Of a stretch of DNA of 33,949 nt, positions 2,396 through 22,756 are shown one piece after another. The position numbers and the translations under genes were made by a program. The stretch spans positions 1 to 33,949 of the forward strand of contig JAUWHQ010000059.1 of the NCBI GenBank assembly GCA_030605805.1, written 5' to 3'. The DNA comes from Methanosarcinales archaeon (GTDB taxonomy: Archaea; Halobacteriota; Methanosarcinia; Methanosarcinales; Methanogasteraceae). Every line of letters starts with the position of its first letter. Within the stretch, counting starts at the first letter, position 1. The notes under the pieces were generated by a model. The model was not told the origin of the DNA. It made no database searches and saw only the letters and a program-made list of their open reading frames with translations.

Positions 2396-2601
2396 GGGCT
2401 TCTTTGCTGTGTTGATGTGGTGATAAATGTTTGGTTAACTTGTTTAAGAAAGGTGGCGCGTGGTAAATGAGGTATTCTGATAATTGTCCGACAGCCGGGG
2501 GATTTGAAAAGTTTAAATACGTGGCAAGTTACAATTAAACTGTAGTGGGTTGTGCCCGGAAGGGATCACAAAATAAAACACAAAAAAGGAGAGTGGAAAT
2601 A

Positions 2602-3651
2602 ATGTTGAAGCGCAGAAAACGGATGTGGTTTGCAATACTGCTGCTACTCGCGATGGTAGGACCAGCAGCGTGCGAAATAGTCGATATAACACATACATAC
2701 ACCGATTCATACACATTTTCAGAAATCACCGTAACCGCCAGTATAGGCACCGAAGTTGATACTATGGTGGAGTATCCAGAAGCGGATTATCCGTATGGCT
2801 TATGTGAGGTGCACTTCTATCCACCTTCGTCGCAGACGGTTACTGGTGGATCAGGTGGATATGGGAGCGTAAAGTGGAAAGTTGTATTTGGATATAATTA
2901 CATGAAATCTGATGACTATATTCTGACTGCATACAATGTATCGAATCCCGGAGATAACAAATCTGTTGTAGTTCCATTCCGAGGGGAAGATCGACCTAAT
3001 GTAAATTGCTTTGTGCTTTACGTCCCCAATCCCGGAATTGCAGAAGTGAGAGTGGGCGATATAGCTTATGTGCGTATTTCTATTGAAGATCCCTATGGAT
3101 GGGATGATATAACAAGTGTTACTGTCGATCTGACTGATTTTGGTCTTGGATCAGAAGTTGCTGTTAATAAAATAACGAGACCCGACCATACCGGGAACTT
3201 CATACACTTCTATAGTGAAGATCTTGTCATACCTGATGTACCATTTCTCCGCATAAGTATGGTTGCCATAGACAAGAATGGCGCACCTCTTATTGAAGAA
3301 AGAAATGTGACAGTGCATCCTGCTGCTCTCAAACCAACGCCAACTCCTACACCCAAACCGACACCAACGGCTACATCAACACCTGTGCCCACTTCTATGT
3401 CAACGCCAACGCCCACACCAGCATCCAAGCCTACTCCAGTAACAACGGTCATAGAGACGCCAGAAGAGGTTGCGGTGGAATCTGAAGAAGTGGAAGATAC
3501 GGTTGACGAACCCACGACTGACGAGACTCGTCCGGTACAAGTAGAGTTAGAGATTGAAGTGGTGAGCATACCAGGATTCACTGCAAGATTCGCAATCCAT
3601 GGTTTACTCATGATCGCTGCTTTGCTTAGATACAGACGAAATCAGTCATAG
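2602..3651 (+). CDS. Secreted surface protein with Pro/Thr-rich linker and PGF-CTERM archaeosortase sorting signal
   Basis: ATG at 2602 is preceded by AGGAGAG. The signal-peptide-like N-terminus is MLKRRKRMWFAILLLLAMVGPAAC. The linker reads KPTPTPTPKPTPTATSTPVPTSMSTPTPTPASKPTPVTT. The C-terminus is PGFTARFAIHGLLMIAALLRYRR, i.e. a PGF motif, a TM helix and a basic tail. The track start at 2545 is probably too far upstream. Confidence 0.75.
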   Translation: MLKRRKRMWFAILLLLAMVGPAACEIVDITHTYTDSYTFSEITVTASIGTEVDTMVEYPEADYPYGLCEVHFYPPSSQTVTGGSGGYGSVKWKVVFGYNYMKSDDYILTAYNVSNPGDNKSVVVPFRGEDRPNVNCFVLYVPNPGIAEVRVGDIAYVRISIEDPYGWDDITSVTVDLTDFGLGSEVAVNKITRPDHTGNFIHFYSEDLVIPDVPFLRISMVAIDKNGAPLIEERNVTVHPAALKPTPTPTPKPTPTATSTPVPTSMSTPTPTPASKPTPVTTVIETPEEVAVESEEVEDTVDEPTTDETRPVQVELEIEVVSIPGFTARFAIHGLLMIAALLRYRRNQS

Positions 3652-3696
3652 GAAGCGGGGGCGATCACCATTCTTGTAGAAAAATATTCTAAGCCA

Positions 3697-4782
3697 ATGA
3701 CACATAAGATGATGCAGAATCGATATGTCAAAAATATTTTCGATAAATTTAAATATTATAGATTATCTATAATTATCACCATAGCAGTTCTTGTGATATT
3801 ATTGATTCGATATCCCACAGAGGCATGTCCCGATAACGCGAGATACATCCTGAGCGCGATTTCTCAAAGTTTGGCTGCTTTACTCGCCCTGGTGTTTACT
3901 ATTACATTAGTAGCAGCTCAAATGACGAGAAGATACACTGCGATGGATGAAATAATATTTAGATCAGAAACTACCGCTTTAATGTCTGCTTATGGGATTG
4001 GAATAATTTTACCAGTTCTAATGCTGAAATTTGGATTCTGGTATAAAGGAGTAATTGTATCGATTTGTATTGCTGCTTTTTGCGTATTTTCGTTATTTCC
4101 ATTTTTGAGAGGAGTGAACACGACGTTGAAAGAGATTGGAATTGCTAATTTGGTCGAAGAGGCAGAAGAGGCACTTTATTTAGGATTTGAGGCAAAAGCA
4201 ATCCATCGAGTTGTTGAATTGGAAGAAATAGGCGAAGATGTAGTAAAACGAAGGCGGGAAGAGAGAGCCGTTCAGATCGTAAATGGATTGGCGTCTATCG
4301 GAACGGAAGCACTTGATAATAATAAAAAATTTGAGAAGCTAATATTACGTGTTGTAAAAATATTGTCCCGCATGGGGTTGCAAGCAGCAAATAACAAATT
4401 GGATAATGCGGTATTGCACGTTGGGGAGGGATTAAAGGATATCGGAGTCAAGATTGCAATTAAGCAATGGACTTCAGAAATGCGGAGTGTTATAATTGGA
4501 TTAGAACGGATCGGGAGTTCAGCTGCCGAGAATGGATTGAACGCCAAACATAGTATAGTAATTGGGTTATGGGTTTTGGGTGCTGCTGTGAAAGAATATT
4601 TGCCTGGATGTGCTGGTGATGTAAAGAGAAGTCTTAAAAAATTGGAAGAGAATATCGATAGAGAGTTGTGGAATTCGTGTTTTGTTAAAGCAAAAGATCA
4701 AATAAATCAAATAGATGCACTTGAAATAAAGTATCTCTACGAATTCAAAGAGTATTATGATGGTGATGGTGCGAGCTATTGA
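3697..4782 (+). CDS. Membrane protein: N-terminal multi-TM domain plus C-terminal helical-repeat domain, function unknown
   Basis: 361-aa ORF in AT-rich DNA with about 4 hydrophobic helices in the first 150 aa or so. The C-terminal half has a recurring x-G-L-x-x-I-G-x-x-A motif (VNGLASIGTEA, LSRMGLQAA, GEGLKDIGVKIA, IIGLERIGSSAA, VIGLWVLGAAV). The stop lies 24 nt before the GmrSD ATG, which has its own GAGGTG Shine-Dalgarno. Confidence 0.6.
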   Translation: MTHKMMQNRYVKNIFDKFKYYRLSIIITIAVLVILLIRYPTEACPDNARYILSAISQSLAALLALVFTITLVAAQMTRRYTAMDEIIFRSETTALMSAYGIGIILPVLMLKFGFWYKGVIVSICIAAFCVFSLFPFLRGVNTTLKEIGIANLVEEAEEALYLGFEAKAIHRVVELEEIGEDVVKRRREERAVQIVNGLASIGTEALDNNKKFEKLILRVVKILSRMGLQAANNKLDNAVLHVGEGLKDIGVKIAIKQWTSEMRSVIIGLERIGSSAAENGLNAKHSIVIGLWVLGAAVKEYLPGCAGDVKRSLKKLEENIDRELWNSCFVKAKDQINQIDALEIKYLYEFKEYYDGDGASY

Positions 4783-4806
4783 AACGCTATAAAGAGGTGC
4801 GATAAA

Positions 4807-6585
4807 ATGATCCAGAGTGCAGAAATATATCAAATATCGAATATTTTCGATATTGATATAAAAGTGAAGTATGAAGTACCTAAATATCAACGAGAATATA
4901 TTTGGGGAAAAGAGCAATGGGAGAATCTGTTTAATGATATATCCGATAGTGATGAGGGGCATTTTCTGGGCTCTATTATCTGTATAAACAACGGGGTAGA
5001 CGCATTAGGCATAACACCGCTGGAAGTTATAGATGGCCAACAGAGACTTACAACCATCTCTTTATTATTTGCTTCTATTTATAATAAACTTCGGAACGAT
5101 GAACGAAACGATGACGATTTTATAACTGAAAGGAATAATTTAAAACATAGATTAACCCAAAAAAAGTGTGAAAACACTCCGAAACTTGAATTGTGTTACC
5201 AAAATAACAATTTTGAAGATTATAATGCCATATTAGCAGAGATCGGCTTATACAACCTCTCTGATAAACCGTCCAATCTAGGCAATAAGCGTATCTATAA
5301 AGCTTATCAATATTTCAATGAAAATCTCCGTGATCTCGAGTATCACCGAGTCATGGAAATTTTATATAAAATAAATTCAGCTTTGTTGGTTAAAATTGAG
5401 GTGAACAGCCACTCAGACGCATTCGTTCTTTTCGAAACTTTGAATAATCGTGGAATGCCCCTTTCTGCCATAGATATTATTAAAAATAAGATTTTATCGG
5501 AGTTGGATCATAGAAACGTTAGATCAGTAGACGATGCTTATGACGAATGGTTAAAATTGGTGGGTAATTTGCCCGATCACTCAATTCAAGAAAGATTTCT
5601 AAGACAATATTATAACGCATTTAGGTACAAAGAAAGAATAAAAGTAGAGAAGTTTCATAGAGCTACGAAACGTAACCTAATCAAGATATATGAGAATCTA
5701 ATAAACCAAGATTCCGGATTTATTTTTGATGAATTGATTGAAAAATCCAGAGCGTATAACTTATTCGTAGAGCCGGATGACAATGGAAGCGATAGCGAAT
5801 ATCACAGAGGGCTGACTGATTTATTACACATCGGGGCGGCTCCGTCTTACACATTTCTACTGTACTTATTCGCAGAGCATGAAAGTAATCACGAACTCAT
5901 TGAAGGGTCGATAAAGTTTTTAGTGAAATATTTTGTTAGGAGAAATTTAACAGATTTTCCAAGAACGAGAGACCTTGACACTATCTTCATGGGGCTAATA
6001 ACTGAATGTGAGCGAAACAGAGACGATTTAACTCCATCCATCATTAGTAACTATTTAACTCAGTCTATGAGGTTCTCTGATATCAATACATTCAAAGAAA
6101 AGCTGGTAGGTGACATTTATGATGATAATGTTGCAGTTACTCGATTTATACTCTGTAAGATAGAAGAAGAGCACCAAACAAAAGAAATCCATACCGACTT
6201 ATGGGCACGAGGCAAAAACAAAAAGTTCGTCTGGACAATAGAGCATATTTTTCCAGAAGGGGTTAATATTCCTAGAGAATGGGTTGATATGGTCGCAAAC
6301 GGCGATGAAAACAAAGCAAATGAATTACATGTGGCATGGGTTCATAAATTGGGCAATCTAACAATGACGGGCTATAATTCTAATTTATCGAACTTTTCCT
6401 TCGGAGAGAAGAGAGATCGGAAGAATAATAAAGGCGATTACATAGGTTACAAGAATGGATTGTACCTAAACAAAGAATTGGCAAATAAAGGCTCATGGAC
6501 CACAGAAAAGATTAAAAATAGAACTGGTGAACTCATTGCAGAGGCTTTAGAATTGTTTAAATTTGATAATGAGAGGATTGATTAA
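4807..6585 (+). CDS. GmrSD-type DUF262/DUF1524 protein (type IV modification-dependent restriction endonuclease family)
   Basis: 592 aa. The N-terminus shows IPKYQREYIWGKEQWENLFNDI and the DGQQRLTT motif of DUF262 (ParB-like NTPase). The C-terminus shows TIEHIFPEG ... VHKLGNLTMTGYNSNLSN, a His-Me finger pattern typical of DUF1524. Confidence 0.85.
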   Translation: MIQSAEIYQISNIFDIDIKVKYEVPKYQREYIWGKEQWENLFNDISDSDEGHFLGSIICINNGVDALGITPLEVIDGQQRLTTISLLFASIYNKLRNDERNDDDFITERNNLKHRLTQKKCENTPKLELCYQNNNFEDYNAILAEIGLYNLSDKPSNLGNKRIYKAYQYFNENLRDLEYHRVMEILYKINSALLVKIEVNSHSDAFVLFETLNNRGMPLSAIDIIKNKILSELDHRNVRSVDDAYDEWLKLVGNLPDHSIQERFLRQYYNAFRYKERIKVEKFHRATKRNLIKIYENLINQDSGFIFDELIEKSRAYNLFVEPDDNGSDSEYHRGLTDLLHIGAAPSYTFLLYLFAEHESNHELIEGSIKFLVKYFVRRNLTDFPRTRDLDTIFMGLITECERNRDDLTPSIISNYLTQSMRFSDINTFKEKLVGDIYDDNVAVTRFILCKIEEEHQTKEIHTDLWARGKNKKFVWTIEHIFPEGVNIPREWVDMVANGDENKANELHVAWVHKLGNLTMTGYNSNLSNFSFGEKRDRKNNKGDYIGYKNGLYLNKELANKGSWTTEKIKNRTGELIAEALELFKFDNERID

Positions 6586-10878: not shown

Positions 10879-11565
10879 CTATAGTTCCAGATAGTTCCCG
10901 TTCACCCTCAACCATTCCTTTTTCCGCTCGTAATCCAGTAAAATTGATGCAAGAATCTCCCAGAATTTCTGTGTGTGGTTCTTTTCCTTGAGATGGACAA
11001 GTTCGTGAACGACTACATAGTCAACTATCGGCATCGGGGTTAGTATGGTCTTCCAGTGAAAGTTCAGGTTCCCGTGCGAGGTGCAGGAGCCCCACCTGTA
11101 CTTCAGATCAAGCACCCTCAATGCACCGGGGCTTACGCCCAGCATATCCTTGTAGATGTTCACACGCCTCTCCATAACTGGCACGGCATGGCTGCGGTAC
11201 CATTCTGTAAAGGTCTTCTTTCCATTCGCAGCATATCGTTTATTCAACTGAAAGAAACCGCGGGAGAGTTTGAGTGGCGCACCGTCGTCCACCAGCTGGA
11301 GCCTGTAGCTTTTCCCGAGATATAGAAACCCTTCCCCGTTCACATATTCTTTTGGCGGAAGTTTCTCTTCTATCAGCCTCTTTTCTGCCAATTTCTGATA
11401 TATCCAGAATTTCTTGCTCTCAAAAAAGTCGTCTATCACCTTATGTGGGCAGTCCAGCGGTGCTCTTAATTGTATATCTCCGTTTCTTTCGATGGTGAGC
11501 CCCAGCGTCTTGCGCTGTGATTGGATGAGTTCATAAGAAAGATTGCTCTTGTTATCTTCTGGCAT
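10879..11565 (-). CDS. DUF45/YgjP-like M48-family zinc metallohydrolase (common type I R-M accessory gene)
   Basis: RWGSCTSHGNLNFHWK and the HExxH motif in VVHELVHLKEKNH. The likely start is ATG 11565 (MPEDNK...), 7 nt after the hsdR stop. The longer track ORF would overlap hsdR. Confidence 0.8.
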   Translation of the reverse strand: MPEDNKSNLSYELIQSQRKTLGLTIERNGDIQLRAPLDCPHKVIDDFFESKKFWIYQKLAEKRLIEEKLPPKEYVNGEGFLYLGKSYRLQLVDDGAPLKLSRGFFQLNKRYAANGKKTFTEWYRSHAVPVMERRVNIYKDMLGVSPGALRVLDLKYRWGSCTSHGNLNFHWKTILTPMPIVDYVVVHELVHLKEKNHTQKFWEILASILLDYERKKEWLRVNGNYLEL

Positions 11566-11572
11566 TGGTTCA

Positions 11573-14500
11573 CTACTCTCTGAGCCGTGAATCAAGCTTT
11601 TCTGCAAGATTAATAAATCTGGTGGATATGGCATCCTTCTTCTTTATGATTTCGGGCAGGCGGGATTTCACGAGTATGCTTATGATGTAACTGTTAAGAC
11701 GCTTTCTTTCAGAGTACTTCTTCCAGAAATCGATGATATTAATCTCTCTTTTTATGATTGAAACGATGTCGATGGTGGCTGAAGCCAATTCTTCCTTTTC
11801 CTGATCTTTTAGCTCTCTGCCACCATAAACCTCCTTTGATAGGATGTCATAGAATGGTTTTTCGATTACAGGGTTGAGACCATCATCTTCTGCCTGCCTA
11901 CCCGCACGCACCTCTTCCAGAAAAGTCATGAGTTCTTCTGCGAGAGCTTCCCAGTTTTCCCTGTTCGCCGCCAGTATTTCATCCAGCTTCTCACTGAGCT
12001 TCCGGTAGTACTCGGGGTCGTAATCGATGTTTGTCGATATATGGAAGCGTATGGCGTGTTCCATCTCGGAAGCACGGGCTTTTGCGGATTTCTGACCTTC
12101 CACATACTTCCCGAAATCATCTGCCGTGATTGCGATCGGCGGGACTTTGGGGTCGATGCCCAGTGATATGATGTGGTCATCTATGAGCTTCCGTACCTTC
12201 TCGCCACAGCCTGCGATGTTGAGTCTGTTGTCTCGGTAGCGGTTTCTTGCGGATGTGTTGATGAAACCAAGGGTTCTCATGTCCTGAATGTACGGAAGGG
12301 CAGCCGGATTTGGCAGAACGATGTCCATGCCCTGCAAGAAGTACCTGTACGCCACAATAAACTCGGCTCGCTTCTCTTCGTCTGCCAGATAATCCACACA
12401 TTCATCTATATCATCTATCGTGTCGATTCCCGCGTTTAAGAAGATATTCAGGACACGCCTGTGCCGATCCTTGAGCTTCGGGATCTCGTCCTTCAAATCG
12501 ATCAGCGCACCCAACACATCCTCTGCACTGAAGATCTTCAGCGCCTCCTTGAGATGATGCCCGATCCCGTAGTAGTCCACCACGTATCCGCAGTTTTTGT
12601 CACTTGCCGGGCGGTTTACCCTGGCGATTGCCTGAAGCAGGTTGTGCTCAACCATTCTTCGGTCCATGTACATGACCTGCTCAACCGGAGCATCAAAGCC
12701 TGTTATGAGCATGTCTTTGACGATAAGGAAGGCAAGACCGTCCTGTTTTTCAGGATCGTCGGACTTAAGCGGCTTTTTGAATCGCTTTATGTCTCGGTCC
12801 TGGCGGACACGGTCGGTATGTGGATGGTATATGGGTTCATCGTTGGTGCCAGCAGAGATGATAGCAGCGGTCTCAAGTCGTTTGAGGGTCTCAAGTTCCT
12901 CTCTTTCCTGCACGTCGGGAGGCTCCTTTTCAAGTCTTTCGATAACCTGCTTCAGGGCTGTGTCCAGCGCTTCCTTGTAGCGGATGGCAGCAAGGCGGCT
13001 GGTGGTCACAACCTGTGCCTTAAAGCCGTTTGGCATTATCTTCCTGCGGTAGTGCTCTACGATATCTCGGGAGATCACCTCAATTCGCTTTGAAGCTTCC
13101 AGCACATCGGTTTTTGTCCCGTATTTCCTCTGTATGGCTTCTCTTTCTTCTGGCGTGTATTCCCTGAACATATCCTCAAAGACATCGTCCAGAGTCTTTC
13201 CGTCTTTTATGGTGTCCTTTGACGTCCTGCCTTCGTATATTATCTGGAGCGTGGAGCCATCCCTCACAGACTGTTCGATCGTGTATTTGTCGATGTACTC
13301 TCCAAAGGTCTCGGTGGTCTTCTTCTTCACCTTCTCGGTGATGAGCGGAGTTCCTGTGAAGGCGACTCTTACGCAATTCGGAAGAGCGTGGAGAAGGCTT
13401 GCCGCCAGACGTGAGGATTGGGTGCGGTGCGCCTCATCTATCAGGAGAAGGATGCGCTCGGATCGATTTAGCACAGGCAAGTGCTTAAATCCTGATTTCG
13501 CTTTTCCATCTCCGCCCTTTTTATTCTTCTCCTGGAATTTCTGCATCATCCCCATAACGATGTTGGAGGTGTCGGTTGCAAGCAGCGTTTTCAGTTCGTC
13601 TATGTTCTTTGCCGCATAGACGGTTTCATCAGTCGTCTTTGCGGTTCCTTTGAGCTGTGTTTCGAGGTCCGTGCGGTCGGTTACAAAAACAATCTTGTAA
13701 CGGCGCATCTGTGAGTCTTTGCGCATCTTCCGAATCAAGAAGACCATGGTAAGGGATTTACCGCTGCCCTGCGTGTGCCAGACCACGCCGCCCATATCTT
13801 TCGGGGTTTTGCCTGACTTGAGCCGATCAAAGATCTTCTGTACCGCCCTGAACTGCTGGTAACGCCCAACGATCTTTATCATCTGCCCCTTATCGTTCTC
13901 TTTGAAGACCGTGAAATTCTCCACGAGATCCAGAAGATTCTGCGGGTGAAGCATCCCCTGAACCAGAAGCTGCTGGCTATTCGGGTTCTTCCCATCAGGA
14001 TCGATATCAGAGAATTTAAAAGGATAACAGTCCTTCCACTCGAGATAATGTGCATATCCGCCGCTTATCGTGGAAAATCTGGCAGCCTGTCGATAGGTTC
14101 CGATCATGAACTGGTTATAGTGGAACAACCGCTCGTTTCCTTCGTTTTCTTTCACCTGAGCGCGGTTGTTGCTGTAGCGTAAAAGCTGGTTTATGGCTTC
14201 CTCCATCGGTTCGGCGATCTTTGGAGACTTGCACTCCACAACAACGAGAGGGATGCCGTTTACAAAGAGCACGATATCAGGGATGATGTGACTGTGATAA
14301 CCGGGTACACCTGTCTTGAACTGGCTTATCGCAAGGAAACGGTTATTTTCGGGGCGTTCGAAGTCTATGTACTTTACAGTCGGGCTTTTCTGATCTGTTG
14401 TGCGGTCCTCGTCCACAACAGTGTTATTCAGGATGAGACCGGTCGCCTCCGCGTTTGCCTCGATCAGGTTTTTCTGTTTGAGACGCACAAGTTCGGTTAT

Positions 14501-14710
14501 CACCTCGTCCATCTGGTCCTCGGCAAGCCATGGGTTGATGCTCTTCAGGGCGCGGCGAAGTTCGGGTTCGAGGATCACCTCCCGGTAGGTGGTGCGAAAA
14601 GAGGACTCGGGCGGGTCGTTCATCTCTAAAAAGAGCGTCTTCCAGCCGATCTTTTCGAGCTGATCCATGAATGGTTTTTCCACATAGGTAAATTCGTTCA
14701 GGTCGGTCAT
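11573..14710 (-). CDS. hsdR: Type I restriction enzyme R subunit
   Basis: 1045 aa. The N-terminal PD-(D/E)xK nuclease block is PDIVLFVNGIPLVVVECK. Helicase motif I is TQGSGKSLTM and motif II is LLIDEAHRTQ. The ATG overlaps the hsdS stop by 4 nt. Confidence 0.95.
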   Translation of the reverse strand: MTDLNEFTYVEKPFMDQLEKIGWKTLFLEMNDPPESSFRTTYREVILEPELRRALKSINPWLAEDQMDEVITELVRLKQKNLIEANAEATGLILNNTVVDEDRTTDQKSPTVKYIDFERPENNRFLAISQFKTGVPGYHSHIIPDIVLFVNGIPLVVVECKSPKIAEPMEEAINQLLRYSNNRAQVKENEGNERLFHYNQFMIGTYRQAARFSTISGGYAHYLEWKDCYPFKFSDIDPDGKNPNSQQLLVQGMLHPQNLLDLVENFTVFKENDKGQMIKIVGRYQQFRAVQKIFDRLKSGKTPKDMGGVVWHTQGSGKSLTMVFLIRKMRKDSQMRRYKIVFVTDRTDLETQLKGTAKTTDETVYAAKNIDELKTLLATDTSNIVMGMMQKFQEKNKKGGDGKAKSGFKHLPVLNRSERILLLIDEAHRTQSSRLAASLLHALPNCVRVAFTGTPLITEKVKKKTTETFGEYIDKYTIEQSVRDGSTLQIIYEGRTSKDTIKDGKTLDDVFEDMFREYTPEEREAIQRKYGTKTDVLEASKRIEVISRDIVEHYRRKIMPNGFKAQVVTTSRLAAIRYKEALDTALKQVIERLEKEPPDVQEREELETLKRLETAAIISAGTNDEPIYHPHTDRVRQDRDIKRFKKPLKSDDPEKQDGLAFLIVKDMLITGFDAPVEQVMYMDRRMVEHNLLQAIARVNRPASDKNCGYVVDYYGIGHHLKEALKIFSAEDVLGALIDLKDEIPKLKDRHRRVLNIFLNAGIDTIDDIDECVDYLADEEKRAEFIVAYRYFLQGMDIVLPNPAALPYIQDMRTLGFINTSARNRYRDNRLNIAGCGEKVRKLIDDHIISLGIDPKVPPIAITADDFGKYVEGQKSAKARASEMEHAIRFHISTNIDYDPEYYRKLSEKLDEILAANRENWEALAEELMTFLEEVRAGRQAEDDGLNPVIEKPFYDILSKEVYGGRELKDQEKEELASATIDIVSIIKREINIIDFWKKYSERKRLNSYIISILVKSRLPEIIKKKDAISTRFINLAEKLDSRLRE

Positions 14711-16047
14711 GCTTCGGCTCCTGTGCTTACCCTGACTTTTCCTGTGAGCAAGTCCTGCATCAAGCCCTTTTTGATCTGCAGGAGTTTGTCGCGGTACGCT
14801 TCTTCTTTTTCGATGCGATCGTCTGCTGCTGTGAGGATCTCTGCGATGCGGCGCTGTTCTGAGAGTGGGGGTAAGATCATGAATAATTGTTTTTGCATCG
14901 TTATTGGGACTTGGTTTCTTGTTGTCTGCGCCATAACTCCAACAAGCTGTTTTTGATAAGTTTCAGAGCGCAAAAAATGAAATAAATAATAGTTATCTAA
15001 TTTGTTTAGATTCGTCCTATAGTATGTTGTAGAGGTGCTTACCATAAAATCTGCTACACCTAAAGCCGCAATGCCAATCCTGCCAACAGTAGCATTGTGT
15101 GCCAATATAACATCTCCAGCTTTTCCAAACCCAACTCTTAATTTCGAACAATAGTCTTCAGGTAATTTAGGTGCAAAATCAAATTGGACCGTACCATTCT
15201 CATCAACATGTTTTGCAGATATGAATGGTCTGCCCACTGTTGAAAAATCCGAAAGCCGAGGATACAGTTCGCCGTGATTTCCATCTTGTATACCTTTAAT
15301 TATATTTGAGTTTAATAATTCGATAACTCTCTCAACCTCCCACCCCTCCGGCACCCGCCCCAGCGGCGAGTCCTTGAACTCGTGCGTCTCCTCGCTGCGT
15401 ATCCTACCCGCCTCGTCGATCCCGCTGGTGAGCAGGTCAGTCATGAGCCCCGCCTTGATCTGCCTGTACTTCGCGATGAGTGCCCCGGTGCGCTCGATGG
15501 TCTCGTCCGCGGCGGAGAGGATCTCGGCGATGCGGTGCTGTTCTGGGAGTGGGGGGAGGGGAATGAACAGATTTGAAAAAGTTGATTTATTTACTATCGG
15601 AACAACTTGCAACCCAGCAACAAGTTCCATTTGATATTTGAAAAGAGATATTGTATAATAAAAATACTCATAGTCGACTATCTCATTTTTACAAATTACA
15701 GTGTTAATCTGCTGATTTGTTGCCAGTTCTCGTTTAGATATTCCAACTTTTCCAAGCTCTCCAATACAAGTAACCATAACAGAATTAGGTGGGAATTTTC
15801 GAGTTTGTTCAAATCCCAATGCTGAAAGTTTGTTGATACCGTCGTAAATGTATTTTTTATCGCCTAAATCCGCAGGAGAAATAAACGGAATATCGCCGTT
15901 ATAATATTCTTTTATTGCTGTTTTTGGAGTATTGCCCGTGATAATCGATCCTAAATTTCCAAGTTTCTCAACCCCCCACCCCTCCGGCAATAAACATAGT
16001 TCAGTCATTTTAAAGCCATTGAAGACCTCTACAGTATTAGCACCCAT
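14707..16047 (-). CDS. hsdS: Type I R-M specificity subunit
   Basis: 446 aa with two AT-rich target-recognition domains. They are separated and followed by GC-rich conserved helices: LPPLPEQHRIAEILSAADETIE...IKAGLMTDLLT and LPPLSEQRRIAEILTAADDRIE...IKKGLMQDLLT. Confidence 0.95.
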   Translation of the reverse strand: MGANTVEVFNGFKMTELCLLPEGWGVEKLGNLGSIITGNTPKTAIKEYYNGDIPFISPADLGDKKYIYDGINKLSALGFEQTRKFPPNSVMVTCIGELGKVGISKRELATNQQINTVICKNEIVDYEYFYYTISLFKYQMELVAGLQVVPIVNKSTFSNLFIPLPPLPEQHRIAEILSAADETIERTGALIAKYRQIKAGLMTDLLTSGIDEAGRIRSEETHEFKDSPLGRVPEGWEVERVIELLNSNIIKGIQDGNHGELYPRLSDFSTVGRPFISAKHVDENGTVQFDFAPKLPEDYCSKLRVGFGKAGDVILAHNATVGRIGIAALGVADFMVSTSTTYYRTNLNKLDNYYLFHFLRSETYQKQLVGVMAQTTRNQVPITMQKQLFMILPPLSEQRRIAEILTAADDRIEKEEAYRDKLLQIKKGLMQDLLTGKVRVSTGAEA

Positions 16048-16050
16048 ATT

Positions 16051-16563
16051 TTACTGATCCTCCTTTTCTAATTGACTAAAAAGCAGAATAGAAAGACGTT
16101 TAAAAATCATTAGCAGGGTCATCATGAAATGAGTAACACCAAAATATACAATCGAAGAAAGAATTAATAAAAATGGATGGTTTTGCCATATTTCGGTAAT
16201 CGCAATTATAATGAGAAATATCAGAGTAATCGTAGAGACAAGAAGAGCATACAGAGAATTTGCATATAAATGCTCGAGCAATAGTCTCCTGTTATTGGCT
16301 TGAGTTACGTTTCCCTCAGCCTTGCCCACGATATCGAAAAGGATGAAAATCACATTAAGAAGAAGTCCTGTAAAGATGGCAAATGCCGTAATAAGAGCGT
16401 TCACAGAATTTTGAGTCAATAGTTTGTTGATTGTTGTGAAAAGTATAGATACGACAATTGGAATTACTATGAAGATTAATATGATAAAACGCAACTTTGT
16501 ATCATGTCGGAGAGTCCCATAATGTTTTTTTACGATAAAACGCACATCAATCAGAGTAAACAT
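16051..16563 (-). CDS. Small 4-TM membrane protein, unknown family (candidate membrane effector)
   Basis: 170 aa. Four hydrophobic helices are visible by eye: RFIILIFIVIPIVVSILFTTI, VNALITAFAIFTGLLLNVIFILF, LYALLVSTITLIFLIIIAI and FLLILSSIVYFGVTHFMMTLLMIF. A 3-nt spacer separates it from the upstream 299-aa ORF, and another 3-nt spacer from the hsdS ATG. I see no recognisable catalytic motif. Confidence 0.7.
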   Translation of the reverse strand: MFTLIDVRFIVKKHYGTLRHDTKLRFIILIFIVIPIVVSILFTTINKLLTQNSVNALITAFAIFTGLLLNVIFILFDIVGKAEGNVTQANNRRLLLEHLYANSLYALLVSTITLIFLIIIAITEIWQNHPFLLILSSIVYFGVTHFMMTLLMIFKRLSILLFSQLEKEDQ

Positions 16564-16566
16564 TAT

Positions 16567-17466
16567 TTATTCTCCAAGATTCTCATTGAGGTGCTTTAAA
16601 TAATCCTCTGATTTTTTCAAAAGATAATCATGTGAAGGAAAGCCACCCTCTATAGGTATACTCCCGTCTAAAGGCATGGATTCTCTGAATTTATCCTCTT
16701 CACCAAAAGTAAGAGTTATTTTGCTCCCATCTTTTTCGATCAACACCTTGATTTCATCATAGCATTCGCCTAATACCTCATAATAGTTTGTTTTTTTCTC
16801 AGACAGTAGAGTTTTAATCGACTCGATCAGGTTTAACTCCTTATTACGTTTAACTCGAAAAACTCGCTCTTCGATAAGTTCTTCCGGGCTCCCGTTATGG
16901 ATTTTTTCAGCGGGGTCCATTGGCACATCATAACGGATCAGTCTAAATTCAACCAAACGGTTTTTTTCGAGCTGCTCTAATAATGTTTGTGAAATTAACC
17001 GATTAAATTCTATAACTAATCCCTGATCACTAAAATATTCGTTTAATTTGCGTTCTAAAACGGTTTTAATCCCATGGACTTTAAACATCTGAAGAATTAA
17101 AATTCCGCGATTTGTGTCGTCCGGAATGTGAAAGAAAAAAAAGAACGGAAGAGTTTCAGAATGTTTTTCCTCTCTCGCATGGGGCGTCTTTTCAAGCGTT
17201 CCTATATCAACAAAATCAGCAGCCACGCCATATTCACCACTTTTTACAATTCCATACACATTTCTTTGAGAATCCTTGAATCCATCCACAGAAATTGTTT
17301 TTTGTGGCTGCTCTAAAACCCGTGTTTCTTGAGCCTCCTTGAGATATTTTTGAAGACATTTCAAAAAACCATTGCCCTTGCCATCTATGTTATTCAAAGG
17401 AAGAGCATCATCCGTTCGCTTTTGCTTAACACGAACAGTGTATGGTACTAACTTAAATCGCGCCAT
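16567..17466 (-). CDS. 299-aa soluble protein of unknown family (candidate sensor partner of the 4-TM protein)
   Basis: ATG 17466 is preceded by GGTGG on the minus strand (about 17470-17476). It has no TM segment and no motif I can assign to a named family. The composition is Lys/Glu-rich and there is an unusual PFFFFFH stretch. Confidence 0.7.
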   Translation of the reverse strand: MARFKLVPYTVRVKQKRTDDALPLNNIDGKGNGFLKCLQKYLKEAQETRVLEQPQKTISVDGFKDSQRNVYGIVKSGEYGVAADFVDIGTLEKTPHAREEKHSETLPFFFFFHIPDDTNRGILILQMFKVHGIKTVLERKLNEYFSDQGLVIEFNRLISQTLLEQLEKNRLVEFRLIRYDVPMDPAEKIHNGSPEELIEERVFRVKRNKELNLIESIKTLLSEKKTNYYEVLGECYDEIKVLIEKDGSKITLTFGEEDKFRESMPLDGSIPIEGGFPSHDYLLKKSEDYLKHLNENLGE

Positions 17467-17588
17467 TTTCCCACCTTAACTAAATTATATTCTCTACTAT
17501 GAGTGTATCTTTGAACAGTATTATCACTTCGCATCACTTCGCCCTATGTTCGGTCATCTTATACTCGTCTGGAGTATCCCCGTCCATT

Positions 17589-17981
17589 TCACACACGCCC
17601 CCAAGGTTCATCTGTATAGCAAAAGGACTGTGGCGGAATAAAATCAGGGACGTGATCTTTTGGATTTACTGGATCGAACAATTCCAACACCCCGATTTCA
17701 ATAGCATATCCCTTGTCCTTATTTCTAAAATAATCGAAAAATTCCACCTCCGCGATCCCCGATAAATCCTTACATATTCTCCACAACTCTTCCGGATGTT
17801 CTTCTATGATAGTTTCTATGGTAAATGCGCCTACAATCCGTTTCACAGGAGAGGAAGCATAAATATACACTTTATCAACGTTATCTCGTTGTTTGAAAAC
17901 CGATTTCCGAAACTCGTATCTTTTATTTCCATTTACGATTTCGTTGACATATTTCGGTCTAATCGACAGTAAAACGTTCAT
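17589..17981 (-). CDS. ASCH-domain (PUA-like fold) protein
   Basis: 130 aa. MNVLLSIRPKYVNEIVNGNKRYEFRK...KVYIYASSPVKRIVGAFTIETI is the canonical ASCH N-terminal pattern. The ATG lies 23 nt upstream of the stop of the preceding PIN fusion gene, and AGGTGG sits upstream of it. Confidence 0.8.
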   Translation of the reverse strand: MNVLLSIRPKYVNEIVNGNKRYEFRKSVFKQRDNVDKVYIYASSPVKRIVGAFTIETIIEEHPEELWRICKDLSGIAEVEFFDYFRNKDKGYAIEIGVLELFDPVNPKDHVPDFIPPQSFCYTDEPWGRV

Positions 17982-19458
17982 TTATCCCACCTCTGGTTTT
18001 TATCCGGAGATATTTTTCATCGGAAATTTGAGCAATGGATTGCGGAGCAGAAATACCCATCGTCTTCAAATCTACCAGCTTTAATGGATTTGGTAAATGG
18101 AAGTGCCACGTAAATAGGATAACCAGCGTTGGTTTTTTTGCGAAATCTTCAATTTCTTCCATGGGATACACGGTTCTATTCCTGACGTATCGAAAAATTT
18201 CATTTTTGTCCTGCAATCCATGGAATGTTTTTCCAACGACACCCAGGGAAGTAATCTCACGCTTATCCACGGTGCGATAAAACAACAGAATATCGCCGGG
18301 TGAAATATTCTTTATTTTGGAATGGCTGAGATATGCTTTTTTTATAGTATTACCCTCAACAATGAATTCACCAGCATGTTCAGATAATGCTGTTTGACGA
18401 CCCCCGTAGTCTGTAAATAATTTCTGATGGTATTCAGGGCGAATCGGGACTAAAAACTTTTTCACATCTGCCCCCTCATAAAAACTCGGGTAATATTTCT
18501 TTGATATTTCCAGCGGGTGCATCAGCTTTGCTTTTTCTTTATCAACTGACAGTTCCTTGACGAAAATATCTTCACCACGATCGTTTACAGCCGCTTTATA
18601 AAATCCATATTCAGTTATTAGATCAACTAAATAGTCGTCTGGCTTGGTAAAATGGGTTAGATAGATTTCAGCGAGGTTGTTTTTAATCGAATAGCCAACT
18701 GCCAATTTTGTAAATAGTTCTCCGATCTTATACCCAACGTGTGTGACGATCAAAGTCGCAATCTTGAGCCTCTTTTTTGCCGGAAGCGGAGGGATAGAAT
18801 CAATGGGATCGTTTTCAATTTTATAAATTAATATTGCTCCGATAGTACCGTCTTTTCTGCGATAAACCCAGCATTTTCTACCTTCTCTGGAAATTTTCTT
18901 AAACCAACTATCAAACTCTTCATATTCTTCTTTTAGAGATCTAAAGATCGGGTCGCTTATCTCAAGATTGTAGACAAGATCTTCCTTTAAAGCAGGTGGT
19001 CGAACCACCTCCTCTCTAAAGATATCCTCTTCAAAAACCCTGATCCCTTCTTCCACGCACAAAACCCTATCTTTTATGTCCAACCGAATAGCTTTTTTAT
19101 GGATGTTTTTATCCTCTGTAATCAGAAAATCTACGGCATCTTTATAGACCGAATACAATAAGGCATTATCAATCTCGTCATTGATTCTCGATGGCGTTCC
19201 AACAATACTCAAAAAATTATCGTCCTTACTTTGGTCAGGAGGAGATTCCAGTGAAGGATAGGTGTTGAGTTTAGATAATGCAATATTCTTTCTATCTTCG
19301 TTCTGGTCTCTTTTTATCTCTTCGAATGTTTCAGGATGGACAAGGATATCAATAGCTTGTGAACTGTTTAATACTTTTAACAGGTGTTGTAACTCATCTG
19401 CAAGTACGTGGTCATTCTCTCTGTAGATGAATATGTTGGTATCAATCAACAGGCGCAT
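17959..19458 (-). CDS. Three-domain fusion: N-terminal PIN nuclease, central GNAT-like acetyltransferase, C-terminal ASCH/PUA-like domain
   Basis: 499 aa. PIN: MRLLIDTNIFIYREND ... HPETFEEI ... DFLITEDKNIHKKA, with spaced acidic residues. Central domain: CWVYRRKDGTIGAILIYKIEN...LKIATLIVTHVGYKIGELFTKLAV...AEIYLTHF...ITEYGFYKA, a GNAT-like strand/helix pattern. C-terminal domain: FLVPIRPEYHQKLF...ISPGDILLFYRT...ITSLGVVGKTF, which parallels the neighbouring ASCH protein. The PIN call is fairly secure. The GNAT and ASCH calls come from pattern recognition only. Confidence 0.65.
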   Translation of the reverse strand: MRLLIDTNIFIYRENDHVLADELQHLLKVLNSSQAIDILVHPETFEEIKRDQNEDRKNIALSKLNTYPSLESPPDQSKDDNFLSIVGTPSRINDEIDNALLYSVYKDAVDFLITEDKNIHKKAIRLDIKDRVLCVEEGIRVFEEDIFREEVVRPPALKEDLVYNLEISDPIFRSLKEEYEEFDSWFKKISREGRKCWVYRRKDGTIGAILIYKIENDPIDSIPPLPAKKRLKIATLIVTHVGYKIGELFTKLAVGYSIKNNLAEIYLTHFTKPDDYLVDLITEYGFYKAAVNDRGEDIFVKELSVDKEKAKLMHPLEISKKYYPSFYEGADVKKFLVPIRPEYHQKLFTDYGGRQTALSEHAGEFIVEGNTIKKAYLSHSKIKNISPGDILLFYRTVDKREITSLGVVGKTFHGLQDKNEIFRYVRNRTVYPMEEIEDFAKKPTLVILFTWHFHLPNPLKLVDLKTMGISAPQSIAQISDEKYLRIKTRGGINERFTVD

Positions 19459-19540
19459 TGTTCGACCTCTTACCCTTTGATAATTCTTCCACGTTCAGCT
19501 TCTTATACCACTCTTGCACAGATTCACACATCATCTTCCA

Positions 19541-20620
19541 TCACCCTCCAGTATTTTCATCAACTCGCCTCCCTGTCCCTTCTCCCCCCCGTTCCAGCTC
19601 TTTCTCCAGTTCTTCAATCGTTGGCAGACTTCCCTTCATCTGGTCAGGCAGCGCATGTATGAGCTGGTATGTGGAGACCCCCATCGGTTTGTTCATGTCG
19701 CGGAGTGCATATTCCGCTATGACCCGGTTTCTGGTCTTGCAGAGGAGGATGCCGACGCTCGGCTGGTCATGGGGTTCGTTGCGGAGCAGATCATCGACTG
19801 CTGATAGGTAGAAGTTCAGTTTGCCTGCGTATTCGGGCACGAAGTTGCCGATCTTTAATTCGATCACCACGTAGCAGTGGAGCCTTGTGTGGTAGAAGAG
19901 CAAATCCGGATAAAAGTCCTGATCGCCCACATCCAGATGATACTCGCTTCCCACGAACGCAAACCCCACTCCAAGTTCAAGGAGGAAGTCACGGAGGTGA
20001 GTGAGGAGCGATTGGTGCAGGTCACGCTCTGAAAATTCCGGTCCGAGACTCAAAAAATCAAAGTTGTAGGGATCTTTCAGGATCTGCTGAGCCAGTTCAG
20101 ACTGGGGCGCGGGAAGCGTCTCTCTAAGATTTGTGACCGCGCTTCCCTGACGATAGAAGAGCCCGCTTTCGATCTGGTGCACGAGCACGTTCCGGCTCCA
20201 CCCTCCCTGGATCGTCTGGTGGATGTACCACTCTCGTTCTGCACGATCCTTCACTTTGTCGAGCAGAGTGATGTTGTGATACCAGGTGATTTGTGCAAGC
20301 ACCTCTTGCACAAATGTTTCATCAGGGTATGCAGCCGCAAAAGCCCTCATGTACTTGAGATTGCGGGTCGAGAAACCTTTTACTTCCGGAAATTCGCGGG
20401 ATAGATCACGAGAAAGACGTGCGATCACCTTCGCACCCCATCCCTCTTCCTCCTGACGCACAAGAATTGATTTTCCTATCTGCCAGTAGAGGAGAACCAG
20501 CTCGCGGTTCACCGAAAGAGCCGCACGGACCTGAGCCGACCGAATCCTCGCCTTCAGATCGGCAAAGAATTCAGGATATCCGGCAAATTGCTCTGTTAAA
20601 CCCGCATCATCGTCTGACAA
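19541..20620 (-). CDS. DUF1016/YhcG-family PD-(D/E)xK nuclease-like protein
   Basis: 359 aa. The N-terminus FFADLKARIRSAQVRAALSVNRELVLLYWQIGKSI is typical of YhcG. The C-terminal block is PDLLFYHTRLHCYVVIELKIG. TTG start at 20620 with a strong AGGAGGT Shine-Dalgarno 8-9 nt upstream. Confidence 0.85.
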   Translation of the reverse strand: MSDDDAGLTEQFAGYPEFFADLKARIRSAQVRAALSVNRELVLLYWQIGKSILVRQEEEGWGAKVIARLSRDLSREFPEVKGFSTRNLKYMRAFAAAYPDETFVQEVLAQITWYHNITLLDKVKDRAEREWYIHQTIQGGWSRNVLVHQIESGLFYRQGSAVTNLRETLPAPQSELAQQILKDPYNFDFLSLGPEFSERDLHQSLLTHLRDFLLELGVGFAFVGSEYHLDVGDQDFYPDLLFYHTRLHCYVVIELKIGNFVPEYAGKLNFYLSAVDDLLRNEPHDQPSVGILLCKTRNRVIAEYALRDMNKPMGVSTYQLIHALPDQMKGSLPTIEELEKELERGGEGTGRRVDENTGG

Positions 20621-20665
20621 CCGCTACTACCTCCTTTTAGTCGTGTTCATACCTCGCGATATTTT

Positions 20666-22756
20666 TCAGGCATACTTGTCGGATTCCGCCATGCAGATCG
20701 GCACACCCGATGCAGCATATCCGAGCCCCTCCAGAAACCCGCCCAGCTTTGCCTTTGCGTTGTCGCGGTCTTCCTCGATCTCTCTTGCTGTCACCATGTA
20801 TTTGTCCCACCAGTTCTCATAGATGGTGATAAGCTCCTGTCTTGATTCTGTGAGGTACTGCTCAAGATGTTTTTCGATATCCAGCTTCAGCGTATTCAGG
20901 GTTTCAACATCAGCCTCCCTTTCGGCGATGATTCGTTTGAGGGTGTACTCTATCTCTTTCCACCAGTTCACGAAAATGCCTGCCACCTTAAACTCATCCA
21001 GAAGCCCAACCGGCAACAGTGCTTCTTTGATGGATGCGATGAACTCCCGCCGTACATTGAAAATATCCTTTCTCGCAGGCAACTCTTTAATGCGCGGCAG
21101 ACTCTCTTCTTCCCACCAGTCAGAAAGCCGGAGTCGCATCTCTTCCTCCACACGTTTCACACCGGGCGCAGTCTCGATAACCTCTTTTATCCGGTCTTTC
21201 TCACCGATCTCGGGCTTGAACCGGGCATAATCTCCATTCATCTCCTGAAACAGCACGCCATCGGTTAAACCGTATTTATCAAGAATTTCCTGTTTAGCCG
21301 CCATCTCTTTCTTTGGGATGCCCCCGAGAAGGTGAGCCCGCACGTCATGGGGTTCAGGGTCTGGCGAGTTGTCCACATACCGCCTGATATTCAGATTGAA
21401 GTCATGTTTCTTGATCTCTTCAACTGTGACGACCTTCGAGTATCCGGGAGTCTCCAGGCGATTCCTGTAAACCGATGTGATCTTCTCGATATCCTCAGGA
21501 CGCAGCCGGTTCTGGTTCTTGCCCTCAGCGTACTCGGCATCACCGTTTATGAAAAGAATTTTGTCTTCTATCACCTCGGTTTTATCCTTATTTATGACCA
21601 GAATGCAGGCAGGAATGCCTGTTCCATAAAACAGACCTGCAGGAAGACCGATTATAGCCTCTATGATGTTGTCCTTCACCATTTCTTCACGTATCCCTTT
21701 CTCCGCACCTCCTCTAAAGAGCACCCCGTGCGGCATGACTGTCGCCATCTTTCCCTTGCTGTTTAAGCTTGCAACCATGTGCTGTGCAAACATGAGATCA
21801 GCTTTCTTGCCGCTCTCAGGTGCAAAGCCATAAGAAAAGCGTTCCTGAAACGGCATCCTGGATTTGGTATAGTTCAGGGAAAACGGTGGATTGGCGATCA
21901 CCCTGTCAAAACGCATGATTTCCCCGCCTTCGGTGTGCTGCGGATCATCAAGGGTGTCTGCGTTCTGTATATCCGCATCCGGAATGTCATGAAGTATCAT
22001 GTTCATCTTGCAGATAGCCCATGTGCCGCCATTGTTATCCTGACCGAAGAGTGAGAGGTTGCGGCTGTTCTGCCCCTGCTCCTCCACATACTGCCTGGAC
22101 TGTATAAGCATACCACCAGAGCCACACGTAGGGTCGTATATTCTCATGCCTTCATGCGGCTCTATTACCTGAACCATCAGGCGCACCACCTCTGATGGTG
22201 TGTAAAATTCACCTCCTTTCTTTCCGGCTGAGTCAGCAAAAAACTTAATCAGATATTCATACGCAGCACCCAAAAGGTCAGGAAACTCAAAGTCCTCGTT
22301 TCTCAGCCGGTATCTGTTGAAATGCGCCAGAAACTCTTGGAGCTTCGAGTCAGGTATCCTTGTCTTTCCCTTCTTTGCGTTGAAATCAATGTGCTTGAGC
22401 ACACCATCCAGCTCAGGGTTCGAGTCCTCAATGGCTGCGAGGGCTTTGTTAAGCTGGTTCCCGATGTCTTTTTTGAGATCCTTTAGTTCAGACCATCTTG
22501 CGCTTTTCGGCACATAGAACATGTATCCCTCATGGGACTCAGCCATCTCCTCTGCGTCTTCCATATCGAGTCCTTCTTTGATAAGCCATTTTTGAAGGAT
22601 CGTCTCCTGCTGTTCCTCAAACTGATCCGAAATTCTGCGCAGGAAAAGCATACCGAAGATGTATTCCTTGAATTCCGAAGCATCCATCTTGCCCCTGAGG
22701 ATGTCGGCTGCTTTAAAAAGATGTGACTCGAGTTGCTGGAGGGTTATTTTGGTCAT
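20666..22756 (-). CDS. hsdM: Type I R-M N6-adenine DNA methyltransferase subunit
   Basis: 696 aa with an HsdM N-terminal domain. SAM motif I is [10 protein letters not shown] and catalytic motif IV is IANPPFS. It has a long C-terminal helical extension. Confidence 0.95.

Follow-up and report, generated by a model that had tools for sequence, protein, structure and literature searches.

A PIN-GNAT-EVE/ASCH gene pair of the PDC-M11 family inserted in a type I restriction-modification operon of a Methanosarcinales archaeon

A two-gene module between hsdM and hsdS

We analysed a 33,949-nucleotide (nt) stretch of DNA from a Methanosarcinales archaeon (GenBank assembly GCA_030605805.1, contig JAUWHQ010000059.1), referred to here as the window, and in particular a pair of overlapping genes that encode a 499-amino-acid (aa) fusion protein of three domains (gene A) and a 130-aa stand-alone ASCH protein (gene B). 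It is near certain that the pair belongs to the (PIN)-GNAT-EVE plus ASCH family, listed as candidate PDC-M11 in PADLOC, and that it is inserted between hsdM and hsdS, genes of a type I restriction-modification (R-M) operon, in an ANME-2-like member of the Methanosarcinales. This assignment follows from the PADLOC matches, the conserved architecture, the domain calls and the operon description of Bell et al. 2020 (BMC Biol 18:159, PMC7641849). An original prediction, made on the window before this analysis, had given the coordinates of both open reading frames (ORFs), their 23-nt overlap and a number of peptide strings, all of which were found exactly as given. The features of the pair are as follows.

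17959..19458, minus strand: gene A, 499-aa PIN-GNAT-EVE fusion with an ATG start; PADLOC PDC-M11A; PIN-extended homolog of the phage protein labelled 'GevT'
17589..17981, minus strand: gene B, 130-aa stand-alone ASCH protein with an ATG start; PADLOC PDC-M11B; homolog of the phage protein labelled 'GevA'
19024..19458, minus strand: PIN domain of gene A, aa 1 to about 145, with a PIN_3 match and invariant acidic residues
18484..18993, minus strand: GNAT-fold acetyltransferase domain of gene A, aa about 156 to 325, called from Foldseek and PHROG
17962..18471, minus strand: C-terminal PUA-like (EVE/ASCH-type) reader domain of gene A, aa about 330 to 499, called from Foldseek, Pfam EVE and PHROG_30943
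17959..17993, minus strand: dual-coding A/B junction, made of the 23-nt overlap (17959-17981) and a GAGGTGG Shine-Dalgarno-like motif (about 17987-17993) that lies within gene A

Domain anatomy of the fusion protein

Gene A matches the PADLOC-DB v2 profile PDC-M11A (PDLC04422) at E 4e-155, with aa 1-498 aligned on profile positions 1-500 of 501, and 1229 homologs share its conserved architecture. The sole Pfam match of the window protein is PIN_3 at aa 2-117 (E 5.8e-4, under the gathering score). When 50 homologs were searched singly, PIN_3 was found in 36 of them (best E 1.8e-7), EVE in 20 and Acetyltransf_1 in five. The gene A sequence matched nothing in the PDB at E<=10, and a viral structure library supplied further PIN, GNAT and ASCH matches.

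An AlphaFold2 (AF2) model built from 50 homolog sequences, with a mean predicted local distance difference test score (pLDDT) of 82.8, sets the PIN domain apart from the remainder of the protein by a linker of low pLDDT at aa 145-155. Six residues of the PIN domain (D6, T7, N8, E14, D97 and D116) are invariant across the family. The central part of the model retrieves dozens of solved GNAT structures from the PDB at a Foldseek probability of 1.00, among them 2oh1 (E 1.4e-5), NatD, PaiA and GCN5, and a PHROG acetyltransferase profile covers aa 161-292 (E 1.4e-10). Here the invariant residues are G242, G246, E247 and L248, at the junction of beta4 and alpha3, and E283-Y284-G285-F286 at a motif B-like position.

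The best Foldseek match of the C-terminal domain is ZmASCH (5GUQ, E 1.3e-7, template modelling (TM) score 0.74-0.81 on the target; also 5GUS/5Y6B), followed by 2gbs and 1zce, which we take to be EVE-domain proteins, all at probability 1.00, and PHROG_30943 covers aa 333-499. Conserved positions include L392-F393-Y394 and P472-Q473, and a loop running through R354-Q355, E360, F365-I366 and G369-N370 is strongly conserved and of low pLDDT. This module is better named a PUA-like domain of EVE type. The three-part reading that the original prediction had proposed, with PIN, GNAT and a C-terminal PUA-like segment, is thus upheld by Pfam, PHROG, Foldseek and the conserved residues. Modelling also bore out the GNAT and ASCH/PUA folds that it had expected; the acetyl-CoA pocket that was to go with them is plausible in the model and is kept here as putative. 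Its statement that the C-terminus of the fusion mirrors the adjacent ASCH protein did not hold at the level of sequence. BLASTP between the two gives E 0.12 and hhalign a probability of 1%, which rules them out as detectable sequence paralogs, and they have in common the fold and a small number of pocket residues (the F-Y-R and I-Y-A Tyr, and a P-Q-S motif).

The small ASCH protein

Gene B matches PADLOC PDC-M11B (PDLC04424) at E 1.6e-47. ZmASCH, the best structural match of the gene A C-terminal domain, is also the closest solved relative of gene B, which aligns with 5GUQ/5GUS over its full length at E 2e-10 as a single sequence and at E 5.6e-21 as a family profile (28 sequences, profile positions 3-129). 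In this alignment the invariant Y41 of gene B falls on ZmASCH Tyr47, the invariant S119 of the P-P-Q-S motif on Ser128, and the near-invariant Q118 (at least 90% conserved) on Gln127; the Lys of the P-V-K motif, tested against ZmASCH Lys53, is the majority residue in the family. Tyr47 and Ser128 contribute to the binding of single-stranded RNA and DNA by ZmASCH and to its weak Mg-dependent RNase activity (Kim et al. 2017). Gene B is most likely a nucleic-acid binder of the ZmASCH type (ASCH family 2), a putative role that we draw from these residue matches. Unlike gene B, ZmASCH is solitary: in two Zymomonas loci it is flanked by housekeeping-looking ORFs and has no GNAT-EVE gene as partner, and tblastn finds no relative of gene A there.

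A weak NCBIfam match over aa 3-94 (E 6e-7) connects gene B with PRK12279, the '50S ribosomal protein L22/unknown domain fusion protein', in its unknown domain, and hints that the ASCH subfamily of gene B can be ribosome-associated.

A conserved 23-nt junction

Scanning 185,579 species genomes with a sequence pattern yielded 207 confirmed loci, of which 80 were examined; together with two metagenomic contigs these make up the 82 related loci used below. Among the 76 loci that extend past the stop codon of the fusion gene, 75 have an ASCH gene that overlaps its 3' end on the same strand, L068 being the exception. In 71 of the 75 loci this overlap measures exactly 23 nt, 67 of them with an ATG, and a few loci have ATA or ACG where the ASCH ATG stands. 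A GGTGG Shine-Dalgarno-like motif is located 5-10 nt upstream of the ASCH ATG. The junction DNA, …GGTGG-N5-ATGAACGTTTTACTNTC…, is nearly invariant among loci because it encodes two frames at once, …GGI(N/D)ERFTV* at the end of the fusion and MNVLLSI… at the start of the ASCH protein.

This junction persists across distant hosts. The 23-nt overlap sequence, ATAAATGAANGTTTTAYTNTC, is near-identical in the ANME-type archaeon of the window (17959-17993, minus strand), in the Methanothermobacter prophage psiM100 (L102, 3950-3979), where it joins ORFD and ORF5, and in a lambdoid phage of E. coli, PhiR47_2 (L101, 5028-5056). The two archaeal junctions, those of the window and psiM100, also have a purine-rich Shine-Dalgarno-like stretch upstream of the ATG. 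The overlap of A and B is far beyond chance. Translational coupling appears from these comparisons to be a deeply conserved property of the family, with the 23-nt overlap probably ancient, and co-expression of A and B would be obligatory and stoichiometrically coupled. Coupled translation had been claimed for the window from the single overlap seen there, and the claim is strengthened by the same-strand arrangement, the constant overlap length and the Shine-Dalgarno-like motif of the related loci. The stand-alone ASCH partner, suggested as a companion of the fusion, is likewise upheld, being its neighbour in all but one of the loci where it could be seen.

PhiR47_2 also provides names for the pair. 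In its GenBank record (PV340567.1, Escherichia phage PhiR47_2), the two genes that directly follow cI bear the labels 'GevT toxin' and 'GevA antitoxin'. Gene B and GevA share 40% identity (E 9e-34), and GevT is 26% identical to gene A over aa 156-498 (E 2e-29). Overlap and junction sequence are those of the window pair; however, GevT has no PIN domain, and a lambdoid phage carries the pair as a moron, unlike the R-M setting of the window.

Distribution, mobility and neighbours

At 50% identity the family falls into 1758 clusters, of which 579 are at E<=1e-30, and most are full length. The 207 matches are scattered in a patchy manner over many archaeal phyla and several bacterial phyla; the closest homologs of gene A, at 92% identity, come from Methanosarcinales/ANME-2 archaea. 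Copies occur on haloarchaeal plasmids and on rhizobial and other alpha-proteobacterial plasmids, the latter often with a gene next door that is annotated as a 'helix-turn-helix domain-containing protein' and is in fact a fusion of a helix-turn-helix (HTH) domain with ASCH. Phage copies are found in prophage psiM100 and in lambdoid phages of E. coli, directly after cI, and the PIN-less form is present, via prophages, in 275 of 5426 complete E. coli genomes (5%).

Two variants of the pair deserve mention. In psiM100 (L102, NC_002628.3 6786-10078) the PIN-GNAT-EVE gene is ORFD (492 aa), most of which lies within an annotated 'inserted fragment IFa', and the ASCH partner ORF5 is annotated as common to phage psiM2, an arrangement that suggests gain or loss of the large gene beside a resident ASCH gene. 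In two of the related loci (one of them L031, 2348-4048) the ASCH partner continues at its C-terminus into a second GNAT, which has a canonical QG(M/I)GRG acetyl-CoA motif, so that the ASCH partner can itself carry an acetyltransferase, and both fusions bear a further PUA-like segment (…LPIKPEFYQ…).

When every ORF of at least 90 aa from 83 loci was clustered, the only recurrent neighbours besides gene B were hsdM, hsdS and hsdR, each gene family in 10-12 loci. There is no conserved third component among these loci, no non-Hsd neighbour family being found in more than five of them. Sporadic neighbours look by their sequences like those of defence islands: a COG2865-like protein, RadC, a nucleotidyltransferase and Fic. 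Sixteen of the 82 related loci have genes for Hsd subunits, which always run in the direction of the fusion gene and sometimes overlap it by 4 nt. Where at least 3 kb are available on each flank, six of 35 loci have hsd genes and 29 do not. R-M embedding is facultative, and R-M is not an obligatory partner of the pair.

Earlier descriptions

The original prediction did not recognise this combination as a described system, and in this it was mistaken. PIN-GNAT-EVE fusions were reported by Bell et al. 2020, who found that almost all operons with such fusions encode an ASCH protein, that these operons often lie within type I R-M operons of archaea and bacteria, and that a toxin-antitoxin function can be predicted for the modules (PMC7641849); they also describe HTH-ASCH fusions, typical of antitoxins, and credit the first description to Iyer et al. 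2013 (NAR 41:7635). Domain order, the ASCH gene in the operon and the frequent type I R-M embedding are the same in their operons and in the window, and nothing essential differs; an AAA_17 ATPase, a frequent extra in the operons of Bell et al., was not found by neighbour clustering in the window or in the 82 related loci. Both proteins match PDC-M11 over their full length, PDC-M11 being itself an untested candidate. The family is thus computationally described, and the window locus adds little to it beyond another archaeal example.

Proposed function

We lean, by a modest measure of probability, towards a function as a mobile toxin-antitoxin-like defence or addiction cassette, in which an EVE-guided PIN/GNAT effector is restrained by the ASCH protein. 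The large protein would be the effector, and its C-terminal PUA-like (EVE-type) domain would dock it on a nucleic acid that probably bears a modified base. RNA, for example tRNA or rRNA, would be the favoured target, given that a PIN RNase and a GNAT are joined to the reader; PIN may cleave this target, the GNAT domain may acetylate it with acetyl-CoA, or both. The ASCH protein, made in fixed proportion by coupling through the 23-nt overlap, would hold the effector in check: it may bind the effector directly, or its ZmASCH-like cleft may occupy or shield the nucleic-acid site on which the effector docks. The balance of effector and ASCH would then be upset when the cell is infected or the cassette is lost, and the R-M operon would serve as a transcription unit and as a defence-island location. 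The invariance of the PIN residues D6, D97 and D116 and of the GNAT glycines and EYGF can be counted toward a predicted catalytic competence of both domains. That the pair is a conflict module of the toxin/antidote kind had been proposed at the outset; this part of the original prediction agrees with the obligatory pairing, the patchy spread, the prophage and plasmid copies and the R-M embedding, as well as with the prediction of Bell et al. 2020. Its claim of novelty does not stand, and its view of ASCH as an eraser is unlikely for reasons given below.

Several points weigh against a toxin-antitoxin-like cassette. The large effector comes first and the small partner second, an order atypical for classical type II toxin-antitoxin systems, and gene B is a bare ASCH domain without a DNA-binding domain, encoded downstream, which makes it an atypical antitoxin. 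The literal Q/R-x-x-G-x-G/A acetyl-CoA motif was not found in the GNAT domain sequence, and the AF2 model of gene A is weak at aa 240-242. Bell et al. 2020 state that no such module has been experimentally characterised (PMC7641849), and the PDCs are, in the preprint of Payne et al. 2024, 145 untested candidates obtained through 'guilt-by-embedding' in BREX, DISARM and type I R-M, most of which are still called unvalidated in later surveys. Our literature search found no paper that uses the names GevT and GevA, and no experiment on any member of the PIN-GNAT-EVE/ASCH family beyond catalogue mentions.

Comparison with known toxins places the pair at some distance from each of them. With the GNAT toxins TacT, AtaT, ItaT and KacT it has in common the GNAT fold and the two-gene logic of toxin and antidote. 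The likeness is at fold level only: the 'bacterial toxin' 7byy ranks 36th in Foldseek, with a TM score of 0.43 on the target, and no specific similarity of gene A to the TacT/AtaT GNAT subfamily was found by PDB sequence search (E<=10) or Foldseek. Those toxins have an upstream antitoxin of the ribbon-helix-helix or HTH type, whereas here a downstream ASCH protein takes this place and the GNAT is fused to PIN and EVE domains. VapBC shares a PIN_3/VapC-like domain with a conserved acidic triad; however, the window pair has no VapB-type antitoxin, and PIN is one module of a 499-aa protein, dispensable in the GNAT-EVE subfamily.

A bolder form of the toxin-antitoxin-like reading would make ASCH a new kind of antitoxin. 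In addition to binding the toxin, or in place of it, the ASCH protein would use its PUA-like cleft to cover or guard the modified site, on RNA or DNA, that is read by the EVE domain of the effector. Two readers of paralogous fold would compete for one modified nucleotide, their competition setting immunity, and a viral change in the abundance or modification of the target would set off the PIN-GNAT effector; the 23-nt junction, shared by ANME archaea and E. coli phages, would determine the ratio of reader to effector. We consider this version improbable as it stands. The family combines three nucleic-acid-directed modules and is widespread across archaea, bacteria and E. coli prophages, and identifying the EVE ligand and the GNAT substrate would tell whether acetylation of RNA or DNA serves as an immune effector.

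Alternative explanations

The pair could instead act on DNA, as an epigenetic accessory of R-M, an idea that Bell et al. 2020 attribute to Iyer et al. 2013. The GNAT domain would acetylate an amino group of a DNA base, EVE and ASCH would read the modified DNA, and the pair would extend or modulate the self/non-self discrimination of the R-M system, or would itself restrict DNA in a modification-dependent manner. Bell et al. argue that ASCH binds modified DNA, and they point to an ASCH-HsdS fusion in Methanohalophilus and to the HTH-ASCH fusions (PMC7641849). EVE domains of type IV enzymes are known from the literature to read 5-methylcytosine and 5-hydroxymethylcytosine in DNA, ZmASCH binds single-stranded DNA besides RNA, and the co-directional hsd genes of the 16 loci, with 4-nt overlaps to hsdM or hsdS in some, would suit such a role. 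However, the 29 well-flanked loci without Hsd genes and the copies that stand alone on phages and plasmids imply that R-M is not required, and neither a DNA nuclease nor a glycosylase is part of the module. VapC/PIN_3-type PIN domains, moreover, are RNases. On balance we hold a DNA-directed accessory to be unlikely.

Less likely still is that the two proteins write and erase a reversible mark, as the original prediction had imagined, with the GNAT domain acetylating RNA, for example at N4 of cytidine, and the free ASCH protein taking the acetyl group off again through an N4-acetylcytidine amidohydrolase activity like that of YqfB. The module does encode a writer, the GNAT, next to a protein that could erase or read, the ASCH, and YqfB, which according to a review hydrolyses N4-acylcytosines, is an ASCH protein. 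Yet gene B, whose profile reaches ZmASCH, found no match to the YqfB structure 1TE7 in the PDB at E<=10, either as a single sequence or as a profile. By hhalign its probability of relation to YqfB is below 1%, in a weak alignment to an approximate YqfB sequence. The only stretch aligned in this weak comparison sets the invariant E23 of gene B opposite Thr24 of the approximate YqfB query. The catalytic residues of YqfB are Lys21, Thr24 and Glu74. Gene B has instead kept the phosphate-backbone-binding cleft residues of the ZmASCH type, and a YqfB-like identity was set aside on the absent PDB match and the hhalign result obtained with the approximate query.

We give equally little credence to a guard resembling PrrC, in which the effector would be latent in the Hsd complex and unleashed when a virus inhibits restriction. 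PrrC, in EcoprrI, is the classical R-M-embedded RNase (mentioned in Payne et al. 2024) and shares with gene A the placement of an RNase-containing gene within a type I R-M operon. In addition to the window, the pair lies between hsdM and hsdS in L005, L006, L016, L027 and L037, and its constant co-orientation and occasional 4-nt overlaps with hsd genes would be in keeping with a guard. The domains of PrrC are unrelated to those of the pair, though, and embedding is facultative here. Most family members have no hsd gene nearby, only the six of 35 well-flanked loci having one, and the pair occurs alone in phages and plasmids; its invariable and obligatory partner is ASCH, not Hsd. Two unrelated cassettes and a DUF1016 gene occupy the same slot in the window, which points to a generic insertion hotspot.

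Finally, a housekeeping pair for RNA modification or processing, with no role in conflict, is very improbable, even though RNA modification linked to translation commonly involves PUA, ASCH and GNAT domains, given only 207 matching stretches, patchily spread across domains of life, the foreign GC content and the prophage, plasmid and R-M locations.

The surrounding R-M operon

Around the A/B pair, a string of genes on the minus strand (11573..22756) reads hsdM, DUF1016/YhcG, A, B, p299, p170, hsdS and hsdR, with the following members besides A and B.

20666-22756, minus strand: hsdM, type I R-M operon
19541-20620, minus strand: DUF1016/YhcG gene (DUF1016_N plus YhcG_C, PD-(D/E)xK); PADLOC PDC-S02, E 5e-157
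16567-17466, minus strand: p299, 299 aa
16051-16563, minus strand: p170, 170 aa, four predicted transmembrane helices
14707-16047, minus strand: hsdS, type I R-M operon
11573-14710, minus strand: hsdR, type I R-M operon

The GC content is 0.49-0.53 in hsdM, hsdR and DUF1016 (0.58-0.62 at third codon positions, GC3) and 0.34-0.39 in A, B, p299 and p170 (GC3 0.33-0.39), A and B alone having 0.38-0.39. Because their GC content is below that of hsdM, hsdR and DUF1016, the A, B, p299 and p170 cassettes are read as insertions into a resident R-M operon. The window locus is in this respect a clean example of a low-GC cassette inserted in a type I R-M operon, beside two other embedded cassettes.

The DUF1016/YhcG gene is wedged between hsdM and the fusion gene, and such a gene also lies beside the A/B pair in L006, L007 and L027. 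One PDC-S02 representative was assayed in a cold-seep study in which four candidates gave E. coli protection against T4, T5 or T7; the PDC-S02 protein was not one of these four. At the other end, a gene for a YgjP-like metallopeptidase (10879-11634, minus strand) overlaps the 3' end of hsdR and completes the R-M operon. A second defence islet of the window, at 2545-6585 on the plus strand (GC 0.35-0.43), consists of two ORFs of 368 and 361 aa, which have no Pfam or PHROG match, ahead of a GmrSD-type (type IV) restriction gene at 4807-6585 (plus strand; GmrSD_N E 3e-39, GmrSD_C E 1e-18).

The p299/p170 pair

The two genes that follow gene B are absent from all 82 PDC-M11 loci, which rules them out as part of the A/B system. 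For p299 there is no significant Pfam or NCBIfam match and no PADLOC match, the sole PHROG match being marginal (E 1.4e-4), and only 41 homologs were found among 5.8 billion proteins. Its AF2 model is beta-rich and reasonably confident (pLDDT 79.5, predicted TM score 0.74), and a Foldseek comparison with the PDB gave no structural match to it (best E 0.059). Directly after the p299 homolog, all six of the longer contigs have a small ORF (164-210 aa), and the three that were compared are homologs of p170 with 39-61% identity. In a Woesearchaeota locus (L105) the pair is again embedded, in the order hsdM, p299, small ORF, hsdS, x and hsdR. The p299/p170 pair looks like a candidate for an undescribed two-gene defence cassette embedded in R-M operons, and it is more novel than the PIN-GNAT-EVE/ASCH pair beside which it lies.

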